A stretch of DNA of 64,000 bases from Escherichia phage HMD-P3. Below are positions 2,533 through 55,392 of the stretch, in pieces. The translations under genes were made by a program, and so were the position numbers. Numbering within the stretch: the first letter of the stretch is position 1; every line of letters begins with the position of its first letter. The notes below the pieces were generated by a model, which saw only the letters and a list, made by a program, of their open reading frames with translations, searched no databases and had not been told where the DNA came from. The DNA lies in the sequence record PQ462667.1; one strand, written 5' to 3'.

Positions 2533-3525
2533 ATGACAGAAGAAGTAGCTAAGAGTCCTGAGACCGTCGCTAGCGTTGCAGCAGAACTGCACCGTCACGA
2601 GGAATCAGATAAGAAAAAGTGGGAGAAGGTCAGAGCCTACGAAGAAAAACATCGTGAACACGATGAAGATGATGAAGAAGATGACGATGATGAACATTGT
2701 CATAAATATGGAAAACATAAAATGCAAGAACCAGTAAACGTATTCACTAGTGGCTTCCCTGGCCTAATGGGCGGTTACCCAGCAAACGCAGGTGCTTTTG
2801 GTGGTGAAGGTATGGGTCTATTCGGAGCTATCCTAATCGGTGCTCTATTAACAGGCGGATTCGGTGGTTTCGGTGGATTCGGTGGACGTGGTGTAGTTGG
2901 TGATGGTAGCGCAGTTGATGCAGTGCTTCAGAATCAAGATACCGCTAGTATTCTAGCAGCTATTAACACTACTCGTACAGAAGCTAATCAGGGTACTGGA
3001 GCTGTTTTAAGCGCAGTTAATAATGGTTTTAGCCAGACATCCCAAAACCAGAGCCGTGATACTCAGTCTGTACTAACTACGATCTATGGTACGGGTGCTA
3101 ATCTGTCTAATCAAATCTGCCAGGAAACTCGCAACGTTATTCAGGGTCAGTTCGATCTTTCTCGCCAGATTGATCAATCTTTCGCAGCTAACCAGATAGC
3201 TCGTGCACAAGATAAGTTTGATTCTGCACAGATCGCTTTCCAGCAGACTTTACAAACTAATAACCAGTTTGCAGCTGTTCAGGCTCAGATGTGTGCTAAC
3301 CAGAACTCTCTGGAACGTCAGATCGCTGAATGTTGCTGTGAACTTCAGACTGCGATCGCTGGTGTAACTACTGCACGTATCCAGGACGAGTTAGACGCAT
3401 GTCGCCTACGTGAAGCAATCGCTGCGGGTAGTGGTGCTAACGGTCAGGTAATTAATCAAATCGCTTTAAGTCTTGGTGCTATCACTCAGACTCTGGCTGG
3501 TCTGCAGGCTAAACTGCCGGCTTAA
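2533..3525 (+). CDS. low-complexity protein: acidic/His-rich N-terminus, glycine-zipper hydrophobic segment, Q/N/A-rich C-terminal domain (about 330 aa from the RBS-supported start)
   Basis: Strong RBS (AGGAGG) 7 nt before ATG at 2533 (the track ORF begins at 2473 without an RBS); segment GLFGAILIGALLTGGFGGFGGFGGRG; CCC and further Cys in the C-terminal part. Confidence 0.55.
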   Translation: MTEEVAKSPETVASVAAELHRHEESDKKKWEKVRAYEEKHREHDEDDEEDDDDEHCHKYGKHKMQEPVNVFTSGFPGLMGGYPANAGAFGGEGMGLFGAILIGALLTGGFGGFGGFGGRGVVGDGSAVDAVLQNQDTASILAAINTTRTEANQGTGAVLSAVNNGFSQTSQNQSRDTQSVLTTIYGTGANLSNQICQETRNVIQGQFDLSRQIDQSFAANQIARAQDKFDSAQIAFQQTLQTNNQFAAVQAQMCANQNSLERQIAECCCELQTAIAGVTTARIQDELDACRLREAIAAGSGANGQVINQIALSLGAITQTLAGLQAKLPA

Positions 3526-21628: not shown

Positions 21629-22436
21629 ATTAATTATTATTAGTGGTGCAGGTTTGAGTGTTGAAAGTGGTGTACGAGCTTTTCGTACTGATACTGCTAG
21701 CGGTAAAGCATTGTGGGATGATTATGATCTAGAAGAAGTATGTAATATTCATGCCTTTCGCGGTAATTTTTATCATAAAACCCATATGTTTTACAACAAG
21801 CGTCGTGAAGAACTAAAAACTGTTGAACCCAATCTTGCGCATTTGCGTATTGGTGAATGGTATAAACAATATCCAGGTCAAATAGTAAACTTGACTACCA
21901 ATGTTGATGACCTTATTGAGCGTGCTGGCGTTCCACATAGTGACATTCTGCACATTCACGGATATTTAAAAGAGGTTGTTGTAGCTGATAACTACAATAG
22001 TAGCAATAAACGGATTATTGATGTAGGATACAATTCTATTGATCCAGATGATTATAAATGGGTTAAACCTAATGTAATCTTCTTTGGAGAGCATGCTCCA
22101 GCATATGCGGAGATGTACAATGTTTTTGATGGTATTACCAGTCAAGATATGATCATTGTGGTTGGTTGCTCCAACCAAGTAATTAACTTCTACTGGGAAT
22201 TATTTCCTGTTCTTAATTTGACTGCTGCTAAGCTAATGGTTGTTAACTACTATGATAGTGCCCTAGCGGTGGAACCGGGCTATCAAGGTATGACTCGTAG
22301 TGAGATGTATCAACTGGAAGAACGTGGTATCCCTTACTGGAGTAAAGGTGCGGTAGATGCTTTCAGTGATCCTGATTTTATTGCTCGTGTAGAAGCTCAT
22401 TTAGGGGGTAGACCTTATGTATCAGGAACTAAGTAA
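21621..22436 (+). CDS. Sir2-family NAD-dependent deacylase/ADP-ribosyltransferase-like protein lacking the zinc ribbon
   Basis: Sirtuin motifs in order: GAGLSVESGVRAFR, TTNVDDLIERAG, HIHG, VIFFGE, IIVVGCSNQV; the CxxC...CxxC zinc motif is absent. Confidence 0.8.
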   Translation: MRRLIIISGAGLSVESGVRAFRTDTASGKALWDDYDLEEVCNIHAFRGNFYHKTHMFYNKRREELKTVEPNLAHLRIGEWYKQYPGQIVNLTTNVDDLIERAGVPHSDILHIHGYLKEVVVADNYNSSNKRIIDVGYNSIDPDDYKWVKPNVIFFGEHAPAYAEMYNVFDGITSQDMIIVVGCSNQVINFYWELFPVLNLTAAKLMVVNYYDSALAVEPGYQGMTRSEMYQLEERGIPYWSKGAVDAFSDPDFIARVEAHLGGRPYVSGTK

Positions 22437-22929
22437 TACTCCAATTATTTTTCTAGACATTGATGGGGTGCTCAATTCGAGCATCTCCCACCATCATGCA
22501 CCTGATAATGAAAAGATTTTCTTTGGAAGTGACTGGGTTTTCAAACCGCTTCTCAAGGCTTTTCAGGACTTTATTCGTCCTTCTCCAATAATGATTGTTG
22601 GAGTATCATCTTGGTTCTCTGTCAGAAATGAGATGGAGAACGTTCAGATTATGACCGGATTAGGTCTTATCGATCGCTTTCTTGGTACAACGGATTTTAC
22701 TGGTGGTGGATTATCTAGGGGTAATTCTGTTCTTCGTTTCGTCGAAAAGCATAAGCTCAAACATTGGTGTGTACTTGATGATGCGGGTGCTATGATGTAT
22801 CAGTATCCAACGGTTATAGTCAACGGTAGAACTGGGATAAATCTTCAAGATTTAAAAGCTGTTAGCTATATGCTAGAATTTAGCCCAGATCTTGAAATGT
22901 GTAAATCCTTACAACAATTTAAGGTGTAA
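22417..22929 (+). CDS. HAD-superfamily phosphatase-like protein
   Basis: HAD motif I FLDIDGVLN near the N-terminus and a late acidic motif WCVLDDAG. Confidence 0.5.
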   Translation: MYQELSNTPIIFLDIDGVLNSSISHHHAPDNEKIFFGSDWVFKPLLKAFQDFIRPSPIMIVGVSSWFSVRNEMENVQIMTGLGLIDRFLGTTDFTGGGLSRGNSVLRFVEKHKLKHWCVLDDAGAMMYQYPTVIVNGRTGINLQDLKAVSYMLEFSPDLEMCKSLQQFKV

Positions 22930-45412: not shown

Positions 45413-45450
45413 AAACCCCAATGGACAAAATCCATTGGGGTTTTCTTTTA
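45413..45450. terminator. bidirectional rho-independent terminator between convergent dut and tail-fibre genes
   Basis: Perfect 10-bp stem ccccaatgga/tccattgggg, 5-nt loop, T-run on plus and A-run upstream. Confidence 0.75.
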
Positions 45451-47604
45451 TTGTGATACTAGTTGTACCTTTAATTGCTCAAGCTCTTTCTCCAGATCTT
45501 CAATCCTTTTAATAAGATCTTGCACAACATGCATAGTGTCAAGAAGCATTGGAGTTGTATCTAATTCCTTTTGTTCCTGCTCTACTCCGTCATCATTATA
45601 GAATCTTCTGGTCTTTACATAGAGGGGCTCTATAGTCTCTACTTGCTGCGCAATAACCCCACGTCGGATACGAGATTTTTCATCGTTATTATATATAAAG
45701 GACTGGAATTCTAATCCTTTTAATACCTCGATGGACTTAGTTGCATCTATAGCTTTAATATCATGCTTTAAACGAGAATCAGATATAGCATTTAACTGCA
45801 GAGTATACGTTGCTGCGCCATTGGGCCACCAAGAATAGAAATAAATACTATTATTGTTTGGCTGAATTTTTAAACGTACACCATATTTGTTATCCGCGTC
45901 TCCCGATACGTGCCAGCAAGAATCAGCAAAGGAACCCAAGTCATTATGAATTAATCCAAAATGTGCAGATGTTTTATACCCCGCAGTAGAATACTGGGAA
46001 CCACTCAAAATACTATTAAAATTAAATGTACTGCCTATATTCGCTTCGCTCTGAGAAAAAGTACCTTGTACCCAGCCTGTCTGAGACCACGCCATACCAG
46101 TTACTAGTCTAGCTTCAAAACGATCCGCTACAAAATTCCCAGTATCTACAAGCTGGGCGGAACTCGATTTACCAGTAGATTTATTTTCTATTAGTAGCTC
46201 AGTAGAGTAGTTGCCATCAATAGTAGCTTTAGCACGTAATGTACTTACAGCTTCACTACTAGTACCTACTTTATACTCAGATAGTACACTCCCGCCATAA
46301 ACAGTAGTACTAGCAGAAGGTTTGACAGCATCGCCATTAATGACACTCCACGAGGTATTCGCAGCCACGAATCCACCAGAAGCACGGATTACCCATACAC
46401 CGACAAAGTTTCGTGTAAGGATTTCGTCCTGTGCTGCACCGTAGATAGGGCTTGAGTGTGAGGCGTCAAAATTTAATGTATTATAGCGCCCAGTTAATGC
46501 AATATTTCCTGTACTGGGGATCGCATCCCCATCCCCATTAGGAAAAATCCCATTATTAACAAAGAATGCACCGGCAGCAGCAGACCCAAATACCTGAGCG
46601 TAGCTAGTACTTGAGTAGCTAGGAACAGTACCTGTTATATTAGGCGCAGCTGATTCAAATAGCTGACCATTTGCACTACTATTCCCACCATCACCACGAC
46701 CGTAAAGAGCACGTATTGATCCTTGTTGCACACCGTTCCGATCTGGCACACGGAAAGTAGTTGTGCCATCACCCAAGGAGTATCTGCCACGCTGAAATTT
46801 ATCTGCTAACCAAACTGAATCATCTATGGCCCCAACCATTTGTGCATATGCCCAAAGTTCAGGCCAATCAGCCCTATTAAGGAGCTGTCCGTCAGAAACG
46901 ACTTCGTATGGCTGAATATACGCACGACTATCTCGGAGGTGAAAATCACCAACACCGTAGTTCATAACACCATTCATGGTAGGTCCAACTGTACCAGTGT
47001 TAATCTTATTCTCTACCCAACGCTTAGTAACAGCATCATAATCATTAACGGGATCTCCAGCAAGTGGAGTAGACCCAATAGGGCGTACATTTAGCCACGC
47101 AGCGGCTCGGTCTGCTAAATCTGATAAATTATTTTCAGATAATAGACTTTCGTCTTTTGTTGGCACATTATAACTTTGTCTAAAAGCTTCTTTTGATACT
47201 ACTCCAGTACCTCCTTGTTCTATAGAAAGTGCAGTGGTTAAACCTGTTAAAGATTTAATAGTTGAGTTGGCACCATCCATGTCTATACTAGCAAATCTTG
47301 ACCATGCAGTCCATGAATTGTAAAAAGATCTACTATATATCTCATTACTATTATAAGGTAAGTAAATTTGAGTACAAGAAGTTGATAAACTGCTTGCATT
47401 ATTTTTTAAGACTAGTAATGTACCTGCAGCTGCAACAGGATAGTTAAGAGAAGTAGGAGAGTTAGCATTTCCAGATTGCCAGTACTTTCCATACACCCTT
47501 CCATCAAGTGTATTTAAATCTGTTCCTGCAGTAATTAAACCATATACAGGTAATGCGGCTACATCAGTAGCCTTTAAGTTAATTTTATCAATTCTAAGAG
47601 CCAT
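45448..47604 (-). CDS. tail fibre protein with C-terminal intramolecular chaperone (S74-type autoproteolytic) domain
   Basis: C-terminal SDSRLKHDIKAI...GVIAQQVETIEP...LEKELEQLK is the hallmark of the tail-fibre/endosialidase intramolecular chaperone; the upstream part is Gly/Ser/Thr/Asn-rich. Confidence 0.75.
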   Translation of the reverse strand: MALRIDKINLKATDVAALPVYGLITAGTDLNTLDGRVYGKYWQSGNANSPTSLNYPVAAAGTLLVLKNNASSLSTSCTQIYLPYNSNEIYSRSFYNSWTAWSRFASIDMDGANSTIKSLTGLTTALSIEQGGTGVVSKEAFRQSYNVPTKDESLLSENNLSDLADRAAAWLNVRPIGSTPLAGDPVNDYDAVTKRWVENKINTGTVGPTMNGVMNYGVGDFHLRDSRAYIQPYEVVSDGQLLNRADWPELWAYAQMVGAIDDSVWLADKFQRGRYSLGDGTTTFRVPDRNGVQQGSIRALYGRGDGGNSSANGQLFESAAPNITGTVPSYSSTSYAQVFGSAAAGAFFVNNGIFPNGDGDAIPSTGNIALTGRYNTLNFDASHSSPIYGAAQDEILTRNFVGVWVIRASGGFVAANTSWSVINGDAVKPSASTTVYGGSVLSEYKVGTSSEAVSTLRAKATIDGNYSTELLIENKSTGKSSSAQLVDTGNFVADRFEARLVTGMAWSQTGWVQGTFSQSEANIGSTFNFNSILSGSQYSTAGYKTSAHFGLIHNDLGSFADSCWHVSGDADNKYGVRLKIQPNNNSIYFYSWWPNGAATYTLQLNAISDSRLKHDIKAIDATKSIEVLKGLEFQSFIYNNDEKSRIRRGVIAQQVETIEPLYVKTRRFYNDDGVEQEQKELDTTPMLLDTMHVVQDLIKRIEDLEKELEQLKVQLVSQ
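45451..45795 (-). other. intramolecular chaperone domain (predicted autocleavage near SDSRLK)
   Basis: Domain limits estimated from the last ~115 residues of the fibre ORF. Confidence 0.6.
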
Positions 47605-47613
47605 TTTAATTCC

Positions 47614-47919
47614 TCATGCCCACATGCGAACAGGTGTTTCTGGGTTTACTATAAACTTATCTAGTATAGAGAGATCAAAATCATCAATATTCATAATACG
47701 CAGATTAACGTGATATCCTTCTTGCACTACATACTCAATATCTTCTATATTTTGATACTCTGTTAAGGGTTTTACAGGCTGACTAATAATACCTATAAAA
47801 TCAATACTAACATTTTCACAGTATAAACTACCTGTTTCTTCATCTAAACTAAAGCCAAATTTTATCAAATTAATTTTCATTTCATCAGCATTAGTAAATT
47901 TTAGATATAAATCTTTCAT
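47614..47919 (-). CDS. hypothetical protein (101 aa) between the two fibre genes
   Basis: Stop lies 9 nt upstream of the next start; AT-rich. Confidence 0.45.
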   Translation of the reverse strand: MKDLYLKFTNADEMKINLIKFGFSLDEETGSLYCENVSIDFIGIISQPVKPLTEYQNIEDIEYVVQEGYHVNLRIMNIDDFDLSILDKFIVNPETPVRMWA

Positions 47920-47964
47920 TATAGGATCCTTAATTTATGGGAGCATTATATAATGCTCCTGTAC

Positions 47965-50060
47965 TTACCGTAAGCCATTAATCTGATCATTATTTAAGGC
48001 CCTATACCATACTCGGAAATTCTTAATATGATATACAAATTTAGAAACGGTATAAGGTGGTGGTGTACCTAACCTAGACGGAGTACCTGTCAAACTCACG
48101 GGAGTACTAGTAGATTTAGCAGTTTTACCATTAAAATAGTTGCTTATTTCATCTCCAACTATTTTTTGGACATAGGTCATAGGAGGTAAACTTTCTATAT
48201 CTGGAATAGATAAGGTTGGCCCACCACTAGATCTATATGTTATTATAGTGGCACTATCACTGCTATTACAGCGGCAGATAATGTCATTCCTAGAGCCTCT
48301 TACTTGCATAACTTCTACATAACTAGTATAAGGCCGTACTTTACAATTAAATTCAAAAGATACTGTACGCTCAAAGTAGTCCGCTAGGGTTCTATAGCCG
48401 GCATTATCTGGTATACACCACCATTCATCTGCTGTTCTAGTAGTAGTGGTATCAGTGCTATTACGGATGTAAGAAGTTGGAGCTATGCCTTCCTCAACCT
48501 GTATACCCCAGATGTAGAAACCAGAAACACCATCCCCCGGATAGACGGTAACACCAGTAGTTTTAGCCATCTGGAGTCTAAATATAGTATCTTTACTTGT
48601 AGTGGCAGCAAAAGAAAGCCAAATTCTATATATACCTCCAGTTAGTCTCTCATATCCCCCTCTAATATTACTAGCAGAACCACTTGTAGTAACAGTTTCA
48701 TTTTTAATATCAAAAAACATGCCCGCTGTTGTACCGGAAGCTACACGTAGGTATACTAAACGATTTGCAGTATCATCTTTAACATAAGCAGAATAGCAAT
48801 AAAAAGTATCAGCAGTCAAAGATATAAATTTATCTTTGGAATAATGCTCGCTGTCATTGGTATTCTCGGTAAACTTAGTCATTAACATTTCGCCAGTCGG
48901 ACAAGCCGAAGCATTAGGAGTTGTAATAACTGTACTACTTCCAGTAATTTCTTCTGAATTAGTATATAAATTAGTGCACTGGGACTCCATTAATAAACCT
49001 TGCTTTTCAAATCTAGGTTCATTAATATCTGCAAAACACATTTTACCACTTTTATCTATATAACTGGCGGTAGTTGAGCGAGTAAAATTTGCAGATTTTG
49101 TTGGTAATTCCAGAGTTACATCATTAATTGTTGCTAAATCGTAAGGGGCCATACCAGATAATAATCTCATATCATCAGTTAAAGGTACCCAAACATCCGG
49201 ATAGGGGACAGGTTCATATATAATAATACTAGCAGCAGAGGCAGCAGCAGCGGCTTCAGAAGCTTTAGCATTAATTTCAGAAGCTTTAGCATTAGTCTCT
49301 GAAGCTTTAGCATTAGTCTCAGAAGTTTTTGCTGCTGTTTGTGAAGCTGCTGCTGCATTTTTACTTGCTAATGCATCAGCGGCACTTCAATTTAATGATA
49401 CGGCGACCACCGAGATCTACACCTGAGGAAACACTCTTTCCCTACACGACGCTCTTCCGATCTAGCTGCCGCTAATTCGGAAGCTTTAGCATTAGTTTCA
49501 GAAGTCTTAGCATTAGTCTCAGAAGTTTTTGCTGCTGTTTGTGAAGCTGCTGCTGCATTTTTACTTGCTAATGCATTAGTCTCACTAGTTTTAGCATTAG
49601 TCTCGGAGGCTTTAGCTTTTGTTTCACTAGTCTTAGCATTAGTTTCTGATACTTTTGCATTAGTCTCTGAGGTTTTAGCCTTAGTTTCACTAGCTTTCGC
49701 ATTAGTCTCAGATACTTTAGCTGCTGCGGCTGATTCTGCAGATCTATCCGCTGATGCAGCAGATTGAGTAGCAGATGTAGCGGACTGAGTAGCAGAAGTT
49801 TCAGAAGCTCCAGCAGAAATAGCTGCTTCCTGTTCAGAGTTCTTAGCGTTAAGCTCCGAAGTTTTAGCCGCTATCTCAGAATCTTTTGCAGCTGCAGCAG
49901 ACTTAGCTGCTGCTTCAATAGAAGATACTAACTCACTTGCAGTAATAGAGCTAATAGAATTACCTAGAGTTACTGTATATCTAGGAAACTTACTAGCAGT
50001 AGCTTTAGTATCATCAATATTTAATATTTGTTGTACAATAATTTTAGTAGTTACTGCCAT
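47965..50060 (-). CDS. L-shaped tail fibre protein (LtfA/pb1-like), frame interrupted in this assembly by an adapter-derived insertion
   Basis: N-terminal part (49392-50060) has SETNAK-type fibre repeats. The frame of the 401-aa ORF 47965-49170 is open upstream through 49171-49380 and encodes the same repeat sequence, so the two track ORFs are fragments of one gene split by the artefact at about 49377-49463. Confidence 0.55.
49394..49463. other. Illumina TruSeq-type universal (P5/i5) adapter sequence (contamination / assembly artefact)
   Basis: AATGATACGGCGACCACCGAGATCTACAC + 8-nt index CTGAGGAA + ACACTCTTTCCCTACACGACGCTCTTCCGATCT; its translation gives the ORF tail ...RVGKECFLRCRSRWSPYH; flanked by duplicated sequence. 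Confidence 0.95.
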
Positions 50061-50482
50061 TATTTAGTTACCCCATCACTGATAAATACTTTACCCTCCA
50101 TTATACGAAAGGAGCTAATTGCAGATCCTATAATATCTCTAGTCATAATTATATCATAGTATCCCGCAAATCTCTGACGAGGATTATATTTATCTCTATC
50201 TTTAGATGCCTTAGCTCCTATATTTTCCACAGATTCTACTGGCAAACTTATAGCTACAGCCCCCTGAGCAGCATCAATAATATTAGTAGTAAAGGATGCT
50301 AATATCTCCGCATTCTCATCTAGGCTATTTTTTATAGTACCCCTTAGAGAGTACCCAGTTAAGTTAACAGGGGTATTTGTAGGTGGATAAGTACTATCAT
50401 CAACATCTAAGAACTGCATCATTAAACCATAAGGTACTTTTTCATCTATTACTAAGTCTATAACTCTATTTTCAGTACTCAT
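50060..50482 (-). CDS. putative collar protein (T5 p132-like, 140 aa)
   Basis: 140-aa ORF directly upstream of the fibre gene, the position and size of T5 p132; call by synteny. Confidence 0.5.
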
Positions 50483-50485
50483 TAT

Positions 50486-52558
50486 TTACCTTATATGAAT
50501 GTACCCGTTTTGCAGGTCTATCTTCATTCTGTAATAGGCTTCCGGGTTAGATGATAGTGCGGCCGCACGATCATATATAATATTCACACCAATTTGAGAT
50601 AAGAAAGCATTACCAGCAACTATTTTACTAGCGGTTACAGTACCATTAACTATCATATCTCCGTGTAAGACCATAGCAGGACTAACCCATGCCGAACCAT
50701 TCCATTGTCTAGTAAATGCTGTTTGCGGAGCATTACTATTAAACTCAGTTAATACATCGTATTTAACAGGTGGGGAACCAAAATTACTTTGGAAGAAGGA
50801 GTTAGCACGACTATCGTCCCATCCTCCTAATCCGGCCACTCCAAGAGAATACATGCCCGGGCCTCTCTGGCCATCCGCACCAATAGTACCTTCAGTACCA
50901 CTCCACTGAACAACGTCTGCCCAGCTAGTACCTTCTAGTAACTTATTAGTAACAGGGTCTAGAGTACCAGTTGTAGCATAAATATTCTGAGTCATATCAG
51001 TACGGTTAGGCGGTGTTTTAGACCAGCCAGGTGGTGGGTAATCCTGCTCCAATGGTTTTGCTGGTAAACTTTTACCAAGTTTATAAACAAATACTGTTTG
51101 TTTACCTTGCATACCAGTTCCAATATCTACGTCACCATTAGGAGTTCCAATAACAACCCCGCTAGAAATACGAAGAGTATCCCCATCATAACGTATCCAC
51201 TGAGTAGCATTACCTATATCTAACTTTGGCTTAGCAGAAGTGTTATCCATTCCCATCCAGATACCAGATTTTGTATCTCCCCAAGTTTTACCTTGAGTAT
51301 AGATTGCCGGATTATCTTGGCCAGTTAGATTAGTCATTACAAAGTTAGCAGCATTGATAGTTTTAGTTATAACACTACCATCAACGTTAACTATCTTTTT
51401 AATAGGATCGAAAGATATTGGTGCTTTTCCTTCGGCATCTAGGAGGCCTATATTAATAGCACCAGTAGTAGCATCGATTAAAAATGTTTGCTTCCACGTG
51501 GAGCCATCTTTAATCTTACCTTTAATATACGCATAGTTTACTTCTATACCAGTTTCATTAACAAAACTATTGTCAAGAGGGGTATCCTCATTTAGTATAA
51601 AAGTCTGTACTACAGAATCTGTTACATCTTGAGCATTTGGCCCCCACGCTATAGAGGAGACTTTAAATTTATGCTCAATTTTCCACGGGAACGATATAAT
51701 AGTTGCCGCTTGTGCAGCACCTACGTTAATTTTTTGGGCCTTAGTCCATCCAGTTCTTGCAAATTCTGCGGAGTCTATATAAGACACGACAAATTCACGA
51801 ACATTTGCTCCAGATCCCTTATTCCAATCCCATTGCACACGTAAATCATAACGTTCTTTACCATCTGCAATTCTTGCAGCCTTGAAGGTAATATTGCTAG
51901 GAGCAGTGGGTGGTACAAAGTTATATTCTACAGTAAGAAATTTAGAAAACTCAAAGTATCCAGAGGAATCTACAGTTACACCATCAGGCATAGTAACTTG
52001 CCCTGATATACGTACTTTATAATCTCCAATAGGAACACCACCAAATCTAATAGTCGGAGATAGTGGGCCTATATAATACTTTATCCATGGGCTATTTGAA
52101 GGTTGAGTACTTTTTAACTCAATAGTACAATAACTAGCTTCTCCTGTAGTTTCTATAACTACTATAGGAGCACCTACGCCCACATCTACTGGATCAGCTT
52201 CTGATCTAGCGGCAGTAATAATAGGTTTTCTCTTAGTACTAAAGGTAGTTTTATTGGATAAGTTTATACCAATTTTAGCCTCTAGTAATTCAGAATCTAT
52301 AATAGAATCATAAAAAGCCCCTTGAACTTCATAAGAGGTTGAAGGGGTTAGATTATTAATCATTACGAAGAAAGTATCTATACCAGTATAATCACGTCTA
52401 TCTATACTTTCTCCTAACTTTAGCCAAAAAGATCTACCAATAACATCATAGTCAGTATATATAGAGTGCTGGACATACGCCATTGTATATCCAGTCATTA
52501 TACTATTTAAGACCATTTTGGCTGGTGCATTATTCGAAATCATTAAATGGATGCCCAC
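50486..52558 (-). CDS. tail/baseplate protein (T5 pb4-like, 690 aa)
   Basis: Large beta-rich Gly/Thr/Ser-rich protein between the hub-like protein and the collar; by synteny and length. Confidence 0.55.
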   Translation of the reverse strand: MGIHLMISNNAPAKMVLNSIMTGYTMAYVQHSIYTDYDVIGRSFWLKLGESIDRRDYTGIDTFFVMINNLTPSTSYEVQGAFYDSIIDSELLEAKIGINLSNKTTFSTKRKPIITAARSEADPVDVGVGAPIVVIETTGEASYCTIELKSTQPSNSPWIKYYIGPLSPTIRFGGVPIGDYKVRISGQVTMPDGVTVDSSGYFEFSKFLTVEYNFVPPTAPSNITFKAARIADGKERYDLRVQWDWNKGSGANVREFVVSYIDSAEFARTGWTKAQKINVGAAQAATIISFPWKIEHKFKVSSIAWGPNAQDVTDSVVQTFILNEDTPLDNSFVNETGIEVNYAYIKGKIKDGSTWKQTFLIDATTGAINIGLLDAEGKAPISFDPIKKIVNVDGSVITKTINAANFVMTNLTGQDNPAIYTQGKTWGDTKSGIWMGMDNTSAKPKLDIGNATQWIRYDGDTLRISSGVVIGTPNGDVDIGTGMQGKQTVFVYKLGKSLPAKPLEQDYPPPGWSKTPPNRTDMTQNIYATTGTLDPVTNKLLEGTSWADVVQWSGTEGTIGADGQRGPGMYSLGVAGLGGWDDSRANSFFQSNFGSPPVKYDVLTEFNSNAPQTAFTRQWNGSAWVSPAMVLHGDMIVNGTVTASKIVAGNAFLSQIGVNIIYDRAAALSSNPEAYYRMKIDLQNGYIHIR

Positions 52559-55392
52559 TCCACAGACTGTTCTCCATCATCTCCTTCTGCTCTAATACGA
52601 AAATATAGTTTTCTATTGATCCCTAGAGCACCACTGTTATGAAGAGCAAAATCTGCCTTATTATACATTAATAAATAGTCATAAGTATACTGATTTTCAA
52701 TACGTACACTTCTTAGCATTCTATTCTGAGAATCATAGATCTCCAGAGTATAGAATATACTTTCTATTATATCTTCTTCTGGTATCCTATCCCAAGCTAG
52801 TCTTACATCTGGGCCTACAAACTCAGTTACATCCCCAGAAGCCATATTAGTTACCCTAAAATTAGATACTACACTTAGGTTTTTAGCAGAGTTAAGTTCT
52901 ATAGATAATGTTACTGGAGAACTTCTTCTACCGTTTATATCCACGGCCCTTATTTCAAATATTGCTAAACCTGCAGGCTCTCCAATTATCTCTTGGACCA
53001 TGCGTTCATTGGGATTTGTTTCTAGTTGCTGCACGATATAGGGTTCAGCATGACCTGAATGCACGATAGAGTAATAAACTACGTTATTAGTTAAACTTGG
53101 AAGCCAAGATAGCTCACCATTTTTTCCTATAGAGCCAACTAAACCACCGGGTGTAGGGGTATATTTAAAATCTCTAGGAGGAAGAACATTGTTACTAATA
53201 TCTGGTATATCATTACCACTATTATCTACTTGATCAGAGTTGATAAATACATCTTCCCCATACTCTTGTAGAGTAACATTTATCTTTCCTTCCCTAGAGT
53301 TTTCGACTTCATCTACTAAAAAGTATTTCTTATCCCATCCGTAACGGTCGTATGTAAATGCAATGGCATCGTTAGGTTCAATACCAATGAATTGATATGG
53401 TAAAGAAAAAGAAAGGGTTCTAGAATACCTAGATTTCTTAAGTTCTCTGTCTGCAAAACTTCTAGCAGTATAGTAGTTAGTTATATTTGCAAAAGATAAT
53501 TGTAATTTTTTGTCTAAATTTTTATCTTGCTCTTTATATCTAGAGTTATAAAAGGTAATAGAGTTAGTTTTCCAGCTAAGAGCTGGGTCTACGATGGATG
53601 CTTGAACTGAGTTGAACTTATTTCTACCAGTAGTATCTGATAGCTCTAAATCACCATAAGTATCCAGAAAATTAATCTCTAATGGAGTATTAGAATACTT
53701 TTCCACAGTAATTCTATACTGACCAGATAAGTTGTTAATAGCTCCACCATAGGACTCTAGCAAACCTTGCACATTTTTGAATACTGATTCAGATGTATCT
53801 AGAATAGTATTCATTTGTACTATTTGTCTATTTTCTGCTAATGGATCAGTCCACCCAATGTACCTCCAGTACGGCTGCCAGGATACTTGGTAAGATTCAT
53901 CTATAATATCTAGGATAGCAGCTTCCTGTATCAATTGTTGAAGAGGGAATTGATCAATAGTAATATTAGCACCGTATCTATCTGAAGTTAAGTAATCAAG
54001 TGTTTGCCAGATACCATTTAAACTAGTGCTATTAGCAGTTACTCTACCATCAGAGTGGTAGATTTTTACCTTCTTACCCTGAATCTCAGCACTAACTTCT
54101 GGAATCTCAGTTCTATTTTCATTAATAGTAAAGCGCACTACCGCATAAGCAGTATCTAATAGTTTATATCTAGCATCCCAGTACTCAGGCCCATTACCGT
54201 TCATACTTTGAAGATAGAACCCACGCTCCTTCGCTATATTTACTAATACTTCAGAAGCCGTTTGATCGGCTTTTCCATGATAAGTCCAAATCCTTATATC
54301 ACCATTACCATCGTTATATTTATATTCCTGGCCATGCACAGAAGGACTACTAGAAGATATTCCTGATGCTATTCTTTGCATGGTGTCTCCTGCTACTTTT
54401 TTAACACCGAAGCAGGTTCTAGCAGAGCTATCATTAGAGTCCATACAAATCATAGGATTATCACCAAAGGAAAAGTCAAGAAAACCGTCTATCTCTCCTT
54501 CAGCAAAAGCATATACTACATAAACTATATTAGGATTGTGTAATTCCGTATCCGCAAAAATAGGTATTCCCGGTATTTTCTGTACACCATAAACTACTGG
54601 TATATACTTAGCAGCAAGGTTAAAATCTATATCTACTTCTTTAGTAACAGTCTCATAATACTTTTTAAGACTATAACTTCTAGATAGTCCAAATAGCTTT
54701 TTCTTAGATTTTAGCTTGTATCTTTCTTCCTGTACCTGATACTTTGCTAGAATAGAGATACTTTTATTGGCATGAAAGAAACCGTAATCTTCTTGGTACT
54801 CAAGTCTTTTAGCCCCGTTAGATGGAAGTAATTGCCCTGCTACAACTTCAAGCCCTCTATGAGAAGCATCATCAGTAAATCTACCATTAACCCTATCAAA
54901 ATCATAGAATTGGTTAGAACAATTCCAAGTAATTGTGGAGGTTCCAACTCCCGAAGTACTAATATTATCCTTAATACCTCCACCAGTAATTCTACCTCTA
55001 AAGTATAATAAAGGCCCGTTTGTGTCTGGGTCTACAGGTAAAATAGAACCATCCTCTGTAATAATTGCTTGGTGGATTGATACTGTTCTATCTAAAAAGG
55101 ACACACCATTCTGCACTAATTTCAGTACTTCATCCTGCGCTGTACCCGTAATAGTAAAAGATAGACTGCCAATAGATAAATCTCTGTTTTGTTTATGTGC
55201 GCTAATAGATTTAACTTTACCAGCCTGATACAAAATACCATTATATAGTACATCTCTAAAATAATCAGTTAAATAAATAAAAGCAGTACTAGTACCAGTA
55301 GAGCTAGGCAACTCTAGAGAAATTAGACTAGCAGTTTTTATTCTGCTATTATTTTTTAAGTAGTTTCTAGCACTATCTAATATTTTTTTCAT
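52543..55392 (-). CDS. baseplate hub / tail tip protein (T5 pb3-like, 949 aa)
   Basis: 949-aa ORF immediately downstream of the Dit-like gene; by synteny and length. Confidence 0.6.
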   Translation of the reverse strand: MKKILDSARNYLKNNSRIKTASLISLELPSSTGTSTAFIYLTDYFRDVLYNGILYQAGKVKSISAHKQNRDLSIGSLSFTITGTAQDEVLKLVQNGVSFLDRTVSIHQAIITEDGSILPVDPDTNGPLLYFRGRITGGGIKDNISTSGVGTSTITWNCSNQFYDFDRVNGRFTDDASHRGLEVVAGQLLPSNGAKRLEYQEDYGFFHANKSISILAKYQVQEERYKLKSKKKLFGLSRSYSLKKYYETVTKEVDIDFNLAAKYIPVVYGVQKIPGIPIFADTELHNPNIVYVVYAFAEGEIDGFLDFSFGDNPMICMDSNDSSARTCFGVKKVAGDTMQRIASGISSSSPSVHGQEYKYNDGNGDIRIWTYHGKADQTASEVLVNIAKERGFYLQSMNGNGPEYWDARYKLLDTAYAVVRFTINENRTEIPEVSAEIQGKKVKIYHSDGRVTANSTSLNGIWQTLDYLTSDRYGANITIDQFPLQQLIQEAAILDIIDESYQVSWQPYWRYIGWTDPLAENRQIVQMNTILDTSESVFKNVQGLLESYGGAINNLSGQYRITVEKYSNTPLEINFLDTYGDLELSDTTGRNKFNSVQASIVDPALSWKTNSITFYNSRYKEQDKNLDKKLQLSFANITNYYTARSFADRELKKSRYSRTLSFSLPYQFIGIEPNDAIAFTYDRYGWDKKYFLVDEVENSREGKINVTLQEYGEDVFINSDQVDNSGNDIPDISNNVLPPRDFKYTPTPGGLVGSIGKNGELSWLPSLTNNVVYYSIVHSGHAEPYIVQQLETNPNERMVQEIIGEPAGLAIFEIRAVDINGRRSSPVTLSIELNSAKNLSVVSNFRVTNMASGDVTEFVGPDVRLAWDRIPEEDIIESIFYTLEIYDSQNRMLRSVRIENQYTYDYLLMYNKADFALHNSGALGINRKLYFRIRAEGDDGEQSVEWASI

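Follow-up and report, generated by a model that had tools for sequence, protein, structure and literature searches.

An Illumina adapter embedded in a tail-fibre gene of Escherichia phage HMD-P3 (PQ462667.1) is, with a probability of roughly 0.93, an assembly artefact accompanied by loss of sequence, in which two ends were joined after assembly had broken at a repeat array. The adapter stretch is not a biological feature of the 64,000-nt sequence that was analysed in full (hereafter the window). The identity of the adapter, the missing sequence, the native character of the duplication beside it and the repeated assembly failure at this locus were each established directly. The artefact is of a known kind, adapter contamination, but in a less commonly noticed internal form that hides a 169-nt gap. 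A reading made previously from the window alone (the sequence-only reading) had likewise judged the region to be an assembly artefact, and this judgement stands on the basis of a synthetic adapter lying inside one tail-fibre gene and of the discontinuity of that gene relative to its orthologues.

The adapter and the gene that it interrupts

Positions 49394-49463 on the plus strand are identical, with no mismatches over 70 nt, to an Illumina adapter comprising P5, an 8-nt index and the TruSeq read-1 primer site. The flow-cell binding sequence P5 (AATGATACGGCGACCACCGAGATCTACAC, synthetic) occupies 49394..49422 (+), is exact at 29 of 29 nt and is without counterpart in the orthologues of IME178, AZ21 and the metagenome contig L010 described below. 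It is followed by the i5 index CTGAGGAA at 49423..49430 (+), in the slot that separates P5 from the read-1 primer site, and by the TruSeq read-1 sequencing-primer site ACACTCTTTCCCTACACGACGCTCTTCCGATCT at 49431..49463 (+), which is exact at 33 of 33 nt and directly abuts the insert. The reverse complement of this primer site is what Read 2 yields past a short insert. Phage sequence proper resumes at 49464, straight after the primer site; the final T/A at this adapter-phage junction is ambiguous, the orthologues reading GCAGCT followed by ACTTCGG where the adapter reads AGATCGG. A complete P5/TruSeq adapter with an 8-nt index at about 49394-49463 had been recognised in the sequence-only reading, and the adapter screen bore this out at 70 of 70 nt and as a single copy.

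No second copy was found in the 64,000 nt of the window even with three mismatches allowed, no match at up to three mismatches appeared in 100 dinucleotide-preserving shuffles, and a sequence search of the window for P7, read-2 and Nextera adapter sequences returned none. The GC content of the adapter is 51.4%, against 39.0% for the window. A literature search for the index string gave no kit match. The adapter is missing from the orthologous loci of IME178, fp01, AZ21 and L010. Its position within the window is internal (49394 of 64000) and not at a contig extremity, as it would be if a contig end had once lain there and had been joined up afterwards. That the adapter-like sequence is physically part of the phage genome, inserted either naturally or in the laboratory, has practically no chance of being correct. 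Its presence in the contig, and nothing more, speaks for such an insertion, whereas the sequence matches a synthetic oligonucleotide, index slot included, at all 70 nt, it breaks an essential structural gene and leaves the downstream part behind a stop codon, it has no counterpart in any orthologue, and the same oligonucleotide is scattered over unrelated phage records, mostly at record ends.

By sequence comparison, the interrupted gene appears to be an ltfA-type lateral tail-fibre gene, on the minus strand, of a Tequintavirus (T5-like phage). Among GenBank phages (INPHARED, August 2025), IME178 and fp01 come closest to it at the locus, with 92-93% identity, and the adjoining tail module shares 88-94% identity with many Tequintavirus genomes; in IMG/VR, no exact counterpart of either flank was found. 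The real N-terminal 199 codons of the LtfA-type gene lie at 49464..50060 (-) and match phrog_5481, tail fiber protein (E 6.5e-77), and phrog_24369 (E 4e-54). The 222-aa ORF that contains them (49392..50060, -) reads ...ASELAAA and then continues into a fake C-terminus of 23 codons, RSEERRVGKECFLRCRSRWSPYH, and a TAA stop at 49392..49463 (-), so that the adapter-encoded tail previously attributed to this ORF was recovered in its translation. The C-terminal 473 codons and the stop of the same gene lie at 47965..49386 (-), in a frame open down to 47965. Both pieces match phrog_1419 collinearly, the N-terminal piece at profile positions 58-267 and the C-terminal piece at 347-790, and both are collinear with the 729-aa orthologues, in agreement with the earlier proposal that one fibre gene has been split into two ORFs.

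The C-terminal piece is listed only as a 401-aa ORF (47965-49170), because an in-frame TGA created by the artefact is present at 49387-49389 and the next ATG is at 49170; 72 real codons (49171-49386) belong to neither the 222-aa nor the 401-aa ORF. A continuous ORF of about 729 aa is absent from the window, the 222-aa and 401-aa ORFs being present instead, a split that is put down to the artefact. A collection of 15 billion proteins contained no exact copy of the 222-aa, the 401-aa or the neighbouring 140-aa protein, and the concern raised previously that a protein deposited from this contig would carry a fake C-terminus was in this respect not confirmed.

The surroundings of the split gene are consistent with a lateral-fibre locus. 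Directly upstream is a gene at 50060..50482 (-) predicted to encode an LtfC-like collar protein for lateral-fibre attachment (PF23926 LtfC, 54.7 bits, cut-off 27; phrog_34807). On the minus strand, this gene and the split fibre gene are followed by a 101-aa ORF and by a gene at 45448..47604 (-) for a second, LtfB-like fibre protein of 718 aa with a predicted C-terminal Peptidase_S74 chaperone domain (PF13884, 45.8 bits, cut-off 22; phrog_6921, E 1e-206). Branched lateral tail fibres of LtfA and LtfB have been described in the T5-like phages DT57C and DT571/2 (PMC4728585), and the succession of LtfC-like collar gene, repeat-rich fibre gene, small ORF and S74 fibre gene is DT57C-like, a likeness of locus organisation and family profiles. 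The published repeats of DT57C LtfA, in contrast to the array in the window, are 19-aa motifs at a different position (PMC4728585).

Missing sequence and the native module array

Intact forms of the gene provided the reference for what the window has lost. IME178 has one 729-aa CDS at this position (QYC97257.1), and an intact 729-aa ORF without adapter is present in metagenome contig ERZ506775 NODE_915 (L010), the sole contig with real phage flank that was found by scanning metagenome contigs (JGI/ENA). The first 199 codons in the window share 99.0% and 93.5% amino-acid identity with residues 1-199 of L010 and IME178, respectively, and the 473 codons from 49386 share 92.8% and 91.3% with residues 257-729; the true protein should accordingly be about 729 aa. 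At the DNA level, blastn aligned window 47313-49388 to L010 1-2077 and window 49457-52997 to L010 2240-5780, and the two flanks of the junction keep the order and orientation that they have in L010.

Between the anchors GCGGCACTTC and AGCTGCCGCTAATTCGG, L010 has 169 nt (2078-2246) where the window has 75 nt (AATTT and the adapter, 49389-49463). The assembly junction is placed at 49388..49464 (-), with 169 nt of real gene lost between these two bases, a figure that derives from relatives 92-98% identical and could differ if this phage has a module count of its own. The lost stretch corresponds to approximately 57 codons, TSATNAATSETNALASKNAAAASQTAAKSSETKAKASETNAATSKTNALASKNAAAG in L010 and residues 200-256 in IME178. 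In these alignments the adapter is a replacement of gene sequence and not an insertion. Since 169 is 3x56+1, fusing 49388 straight to 49464 shifts the reading frame, and the gene is not restored by excision of the adapter.

The junction is flanked by an exact 70-nt direct repeat (49307-49376 and 49507-49576), which is the sole exact repeat of at least 25 nt within 49150-50060. Identity of about 70 bp on either side of the adapter had been reported in the sequence-only reading, and this part holds, with the coordinates now shifted from roughly 49305-49376 and 49510-49576; the duplication had also been counted as part of the artefact, and this part does not hold. The N-terminal array of the ltfA-type gene is built of 21-nt SETNAK-type units in three 147-nt modules. 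Modules similar to the 70-nt repeat of the window start at 1996, 2143 and 2290 in L010, with 1, 8 and 1 mismatches to it, and at 2909, 3056 and 3203 in IME178, with 16, 7 and 4 mismatches, and the spacing in both is exactly 147 nt (7 units of 21 nt, 49 aa). The copy at 49307..49376 (-), which codes for ...ALASKNAAAASQTAAKTSETNAK, corresponds to the third native module (L010:1996, 1 mismatch; IME178:2909, 16) and the copy at 49507..49576 (-) to the first (L010:2290, 1 mismatch; IME178:3203, 4). The duplication therefore differs by only 1 of 70 nt from L010 modules at each of the two positions. The sequences beside the copies are paralogue-specific as in the orthologues, with KASELAAA after module 1 and (G)SAAD before module 3. 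The two copies in the window are 200 nt apart, which is no multiple of 3 or 21, against an expected 294 nt, and the shortfall of 94 nt equals 169 - 75. On this comparison the duplication is native, the window copies being the outer modules of three, and what is absent is the middle module together with its flanks. Comparison with related T5-like genomes, suggested previously as a way to recover the repeat count, thus gave three modules at 147-nt spacing in L010 and IME178, and the earlier caution that the local repeat number is unreliable proved justified, with the middle of the three modules missing relative to both.

A different account of the duplication is that of a pure insertion with artefactual duplication, in which a single 70-bp copy is true, the remainder represents overlapping contig ends and collapse to one copy restores the gene. 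The complete identity of the two window copies over 70 nt would be expected under this account, the longest exact repeat of this region in IME178 is merely 38 nt, and overlapping contig ends do occur in the clade, as the 111-nt overlaps of AZ21 and AZ23 illustrate. However, the sequence beyond each copy is paralogue-specific and collinear with intact orthologues (...KASELAAA on one side and (G)SAAD on the other), L010, an independent contig, shows almost the same sequence in both places (one mismatch each, 294 nt apart), and a one-copy collapse would cost 98 aa relative to every intact orthologue. Such an insertion is very unlikely, and because orthologue modules exist at both places with collinear paralogue-specific flanks, the reading of the repeat as an artefactual overlap of contig ends was rejected in favour of native modules and a deletion between them.

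Bases at the junction and a proposed origin

The 17 nt preceding the adapter (49377-49393) had been singled out in the sequence-only reading; they are present as described, and the description of them as unexplained now applies to two bases. The first 12, at 49377..49388 (minus strand GAAGTGCCGCTG), are genuine gene sequence coding for (G)SAA of ...GSAADALASK... and align to GGAAGTGCCGCAGATGC in IME178 and L010; the blastn alignment with L010 ends exactly at 49388. The remaining five, AATTT at 49389..49393 and assigned to neither strand, are non-phage, the orthologues having CAGCT (L010) or CAGCA (IME178) there. A second adapter was also considered as the source of the 17 nt and was rejected, as P7, read-2 and Nextera sequences are absent from the window and the orthologues account for 12 of the 17 nt.

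Other adapter-carrying phage records in GenBank provide a counterpart for three of the five bases. A run of 3-10 T immediately 5' of P5 was present in 5/5 such records, and poly-C lay outward of the T-run in 4/5. On the read strand this corresponds to ...ATCATT followed by A's and then poly-G, as expected of a read that runs past the end of a library molecule. In the window, TTT (49391-49393) directly precedes P5, with 3 nt only before AA and without a poly-G/C tail, and this TTT would fit the read-through signature of the other contaminated records. The AA (49389-49390) has no explanation. In the immobilised primers used for bridge amplification, P5 is preceded on its 5' side by a 10-T spacer. 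To our knowledge, a proper library molecule never has any sequence 5' of P5, and the phage DNA to the left of 49394 must for this reason come from another molecule than the adapter. Home-made immobilised primers have been built on the same T-spacer design (PMC11123353).

The read behaviour and the join that produced the structure can be inferred as follows. Short-read assembly of a circular-looking T5-like genome would have broken inside the ltfA array. At one broken end, Read-2 reads that had not been trimmed and that ran through a short library fragment ending at 49464 would have lengthened the contig, the read-through covering the full reverse-complemented TruSeq/i5/P5 sequence and a few bases beyond, which may represent the T-spacer of the flow-cell oligonucleotide or junk. 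The opposite broken end would have stopped 12 nt beyond the third module. The ends would then have been concatenated in the right order and orientation, with no overlap check and no Ns, likely on the occasion of rotation to a conventional start or of contig ordering on a reference, and the outcome would be 75 nt of non-phage sequence in place of 169 nt of real gene.

A chimeric library molecule or read, arising by ligation or PCR chimerism, could in principle have placed phage, P5 adapter and phage sequence in one read that the assembler then followed through the repeats. This possibility is in keeping with a seamless junction that has no Ns, no poly-G/C tail and 5 odd nt between phage and P5. 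It is nonetheless quite unlikely, given that the 5' end of the P5 adapter is not normally ligatable, that the TTT before P5 resembles the read-through signature and not a ligation junction, and that the joined ends are the exact two sides of a repeat-induced gap, which is expected for end-joining and would be a coincidence for a random chimera. A chimeric read would still be an artefact and would have the same consequences. The joining of two broken ends, one of them carrying read-through adapter, is thus retained as the preferred origin.

Recurrent assembly failure and implications for the fibre locus

Three further records of the clade are interrupted in the same gene. In fp01 (NC_048731), a run of 41 Ns bridges the equivalent of window 49326-49558, its flanks match window 49301-49325 and 49559-49583, and the gene is annotated as two CDSs. 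AZ21 (LC788708) and AZ23 (LC788707), each described as a 'complete sequence', both have their two termini within this gene, and the end of each overlaps its start exactly over 111 nt, which indicates un-rotated circular contigs opened in the array. Four assemblies of the clade (the window, fp01, AZ21 and AZ23) fail at the same array. The three records share with the window the gene, the array of 147-nt period and breakpoints less than about 250 nt from the window junction. They differ in that their problem is flagged, by Ns or by 'partial CDS' at the record ends, and they contain no adapter, whereas in the window a seamless join hides the problem.

Adapters are reported to be concentrated at the extremities of contigs and to be capable of breaking them (PMC11536531, BMC Genomics 2024), and in other GenBank phage records the adapter was mostly within about 150 nt of the record end, with its 5' end outward. 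The window resembles contamination of this type in the synthetic sequence itself, a probable untrimmed read-through origin, a contig break and an adapter 5' end pointing away from real sequence. Unlike such contamination, the adapter in the window is internal (about 49.4 kb of 64 kb) and masks a 169-nt deletion. Internal adapter junctions were also found in two 'complete' phage genomes, Acinetobacter phage TAC1 (MK170160, ~22.6 kb) and Paenibacillus phage Pd_22F (MZ092003, ~49.3 kb), both of which, like the window, have an embedded P5 adapter with a T-run before it. In TAC1 the adapter lies between two CDSs annotated as 'tail fiber protein', possibly another fibre gene split in this way. Both genomes derive from Nextera-type libraries, with two head-to-head adapters in TAC1 and poly-G and poly-C tails in Pd_22F, whereas the window contains a single adapter, of TruSeq type, with hardly any tail. 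In a separate record, PQ336906, a deposited CDS sits on poly-C and adapter sequence.

The significance of the finding is one of quality control only, in that the contig misrepresents an LtfA-type lateral tail-fibre gene of relevance to host range. A protein of about 729 aa is shown as a 222-aa fragment, of which 23 residues are fake, and a 401-aa fragment, and about 57 codons are absent. Because excision of the adapter leaves a frameshift, repair of the locus calls for re-sequencing or for a new assembly from trimmed reads, and because the adapter is internal, screens restricted to contig ends miss it. As assembly at this array has also failed in at least three further deposited records of the clade (fp01, AZ21 and AZ23), fibre repeat counts obtained here from short reads are untrustworthy. 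A further conjecture, considered unlikely, is that the phage stock is heterogeneous in module number and that this contributed to the assembly break in addition to the repeats. If true, recombination between modules could add or remove 49-aa units in frame, and the length of the lateral-fibre shaft would be naturally variable in this clade.

Adapter sequence in deposited phage genomes

The adapter that splits the lateral tail-fibre gene of HMD-P3 is an exact Illumina P5/TruSeq sequence, and its i5 index, CTGAGGAA (window 49423-49430), which a literature search did not match to any commercial index set, could help to trace the source library or run. In all, 24 GenBank phage records were found to carry the P5/TruSeq adapter. 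The record of Salmonella phage CHRF_10034 has poly-C and this adapter at its end (PQ336906.1 44830-44975), and a deposited 'hypothetical protein' CDS, XKI62255.1, is placed on the poly-C and adapter stretch, which contains two stop codons when translated in frame 1, the only frame read. XKI62255.1 is an example of an annotated CDS on adapter sequence.

Adapter blocks were also observed within two records deposited as complete genomes. In Acinetobacter phage TAC1 (MK170160.1 about 22431-22859), Nextera/P5 adapters lie head-to-head with a T10 run between TAC_0042 and TAC_0043, each of which is annotated as 'tail fiber protein'. The two CDSs are probably parts of a further fibre gene that an internal adapter junction has divided. 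In Paenibacillus phage Pd_22F (MZ092003.1 about 49155-49583), poly-G, poly-C, TTT, P5, an index and a Nextera adapter follow one another in the middle of an 86-kb record, an arrangement that looks like the join of two contig ends, each with a junk tail.

Interruptions of the orthologous fibre gene

The orthologous fibre gene is also interrupted in the records of other phages. The RefSeq genome of phage fp01 contains a run of 41 Ns within this gene (NC_048731.1 60627-60667), both edges of which fall inside repeat modules, leading from one module to another, and the annotation divides the gene between HWB87_gp087 and gp088, a pair of CDSs that overlap. The records of AZ21 (LC788708) and AZ23 (LC788707), labelled 'complete sequence', both start and end within the gene, retain an exact end/start overlap of 111 nt, and annotate the gene solely as a 'partial CDS' misc_feature. 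Joining each record through this overlap would restore an unbroken fibre gene with three modules.

Higher-order repeat of the fibre shaft

The N-terminal shaft of the fibre is built from SETNAK-type units of 21 nt (7 aa), and these units form larger modules that recur every 147 nt (49 aa) as a higher-order repeat. This organisation is seen at 49255-49329 and 49476-49721 in the window, 1996-2360 in the metagenome contig locus (L010) and 2909-3273 in the IME178 locus (L001), with three modules present in the intact relatives. The outer modules are nearly identical in the window lineage (70/70 nt in the window), whereas those of IME178 are far more diverged. This difference is a hint that the array has undergone concerted evolution or internal recombination.
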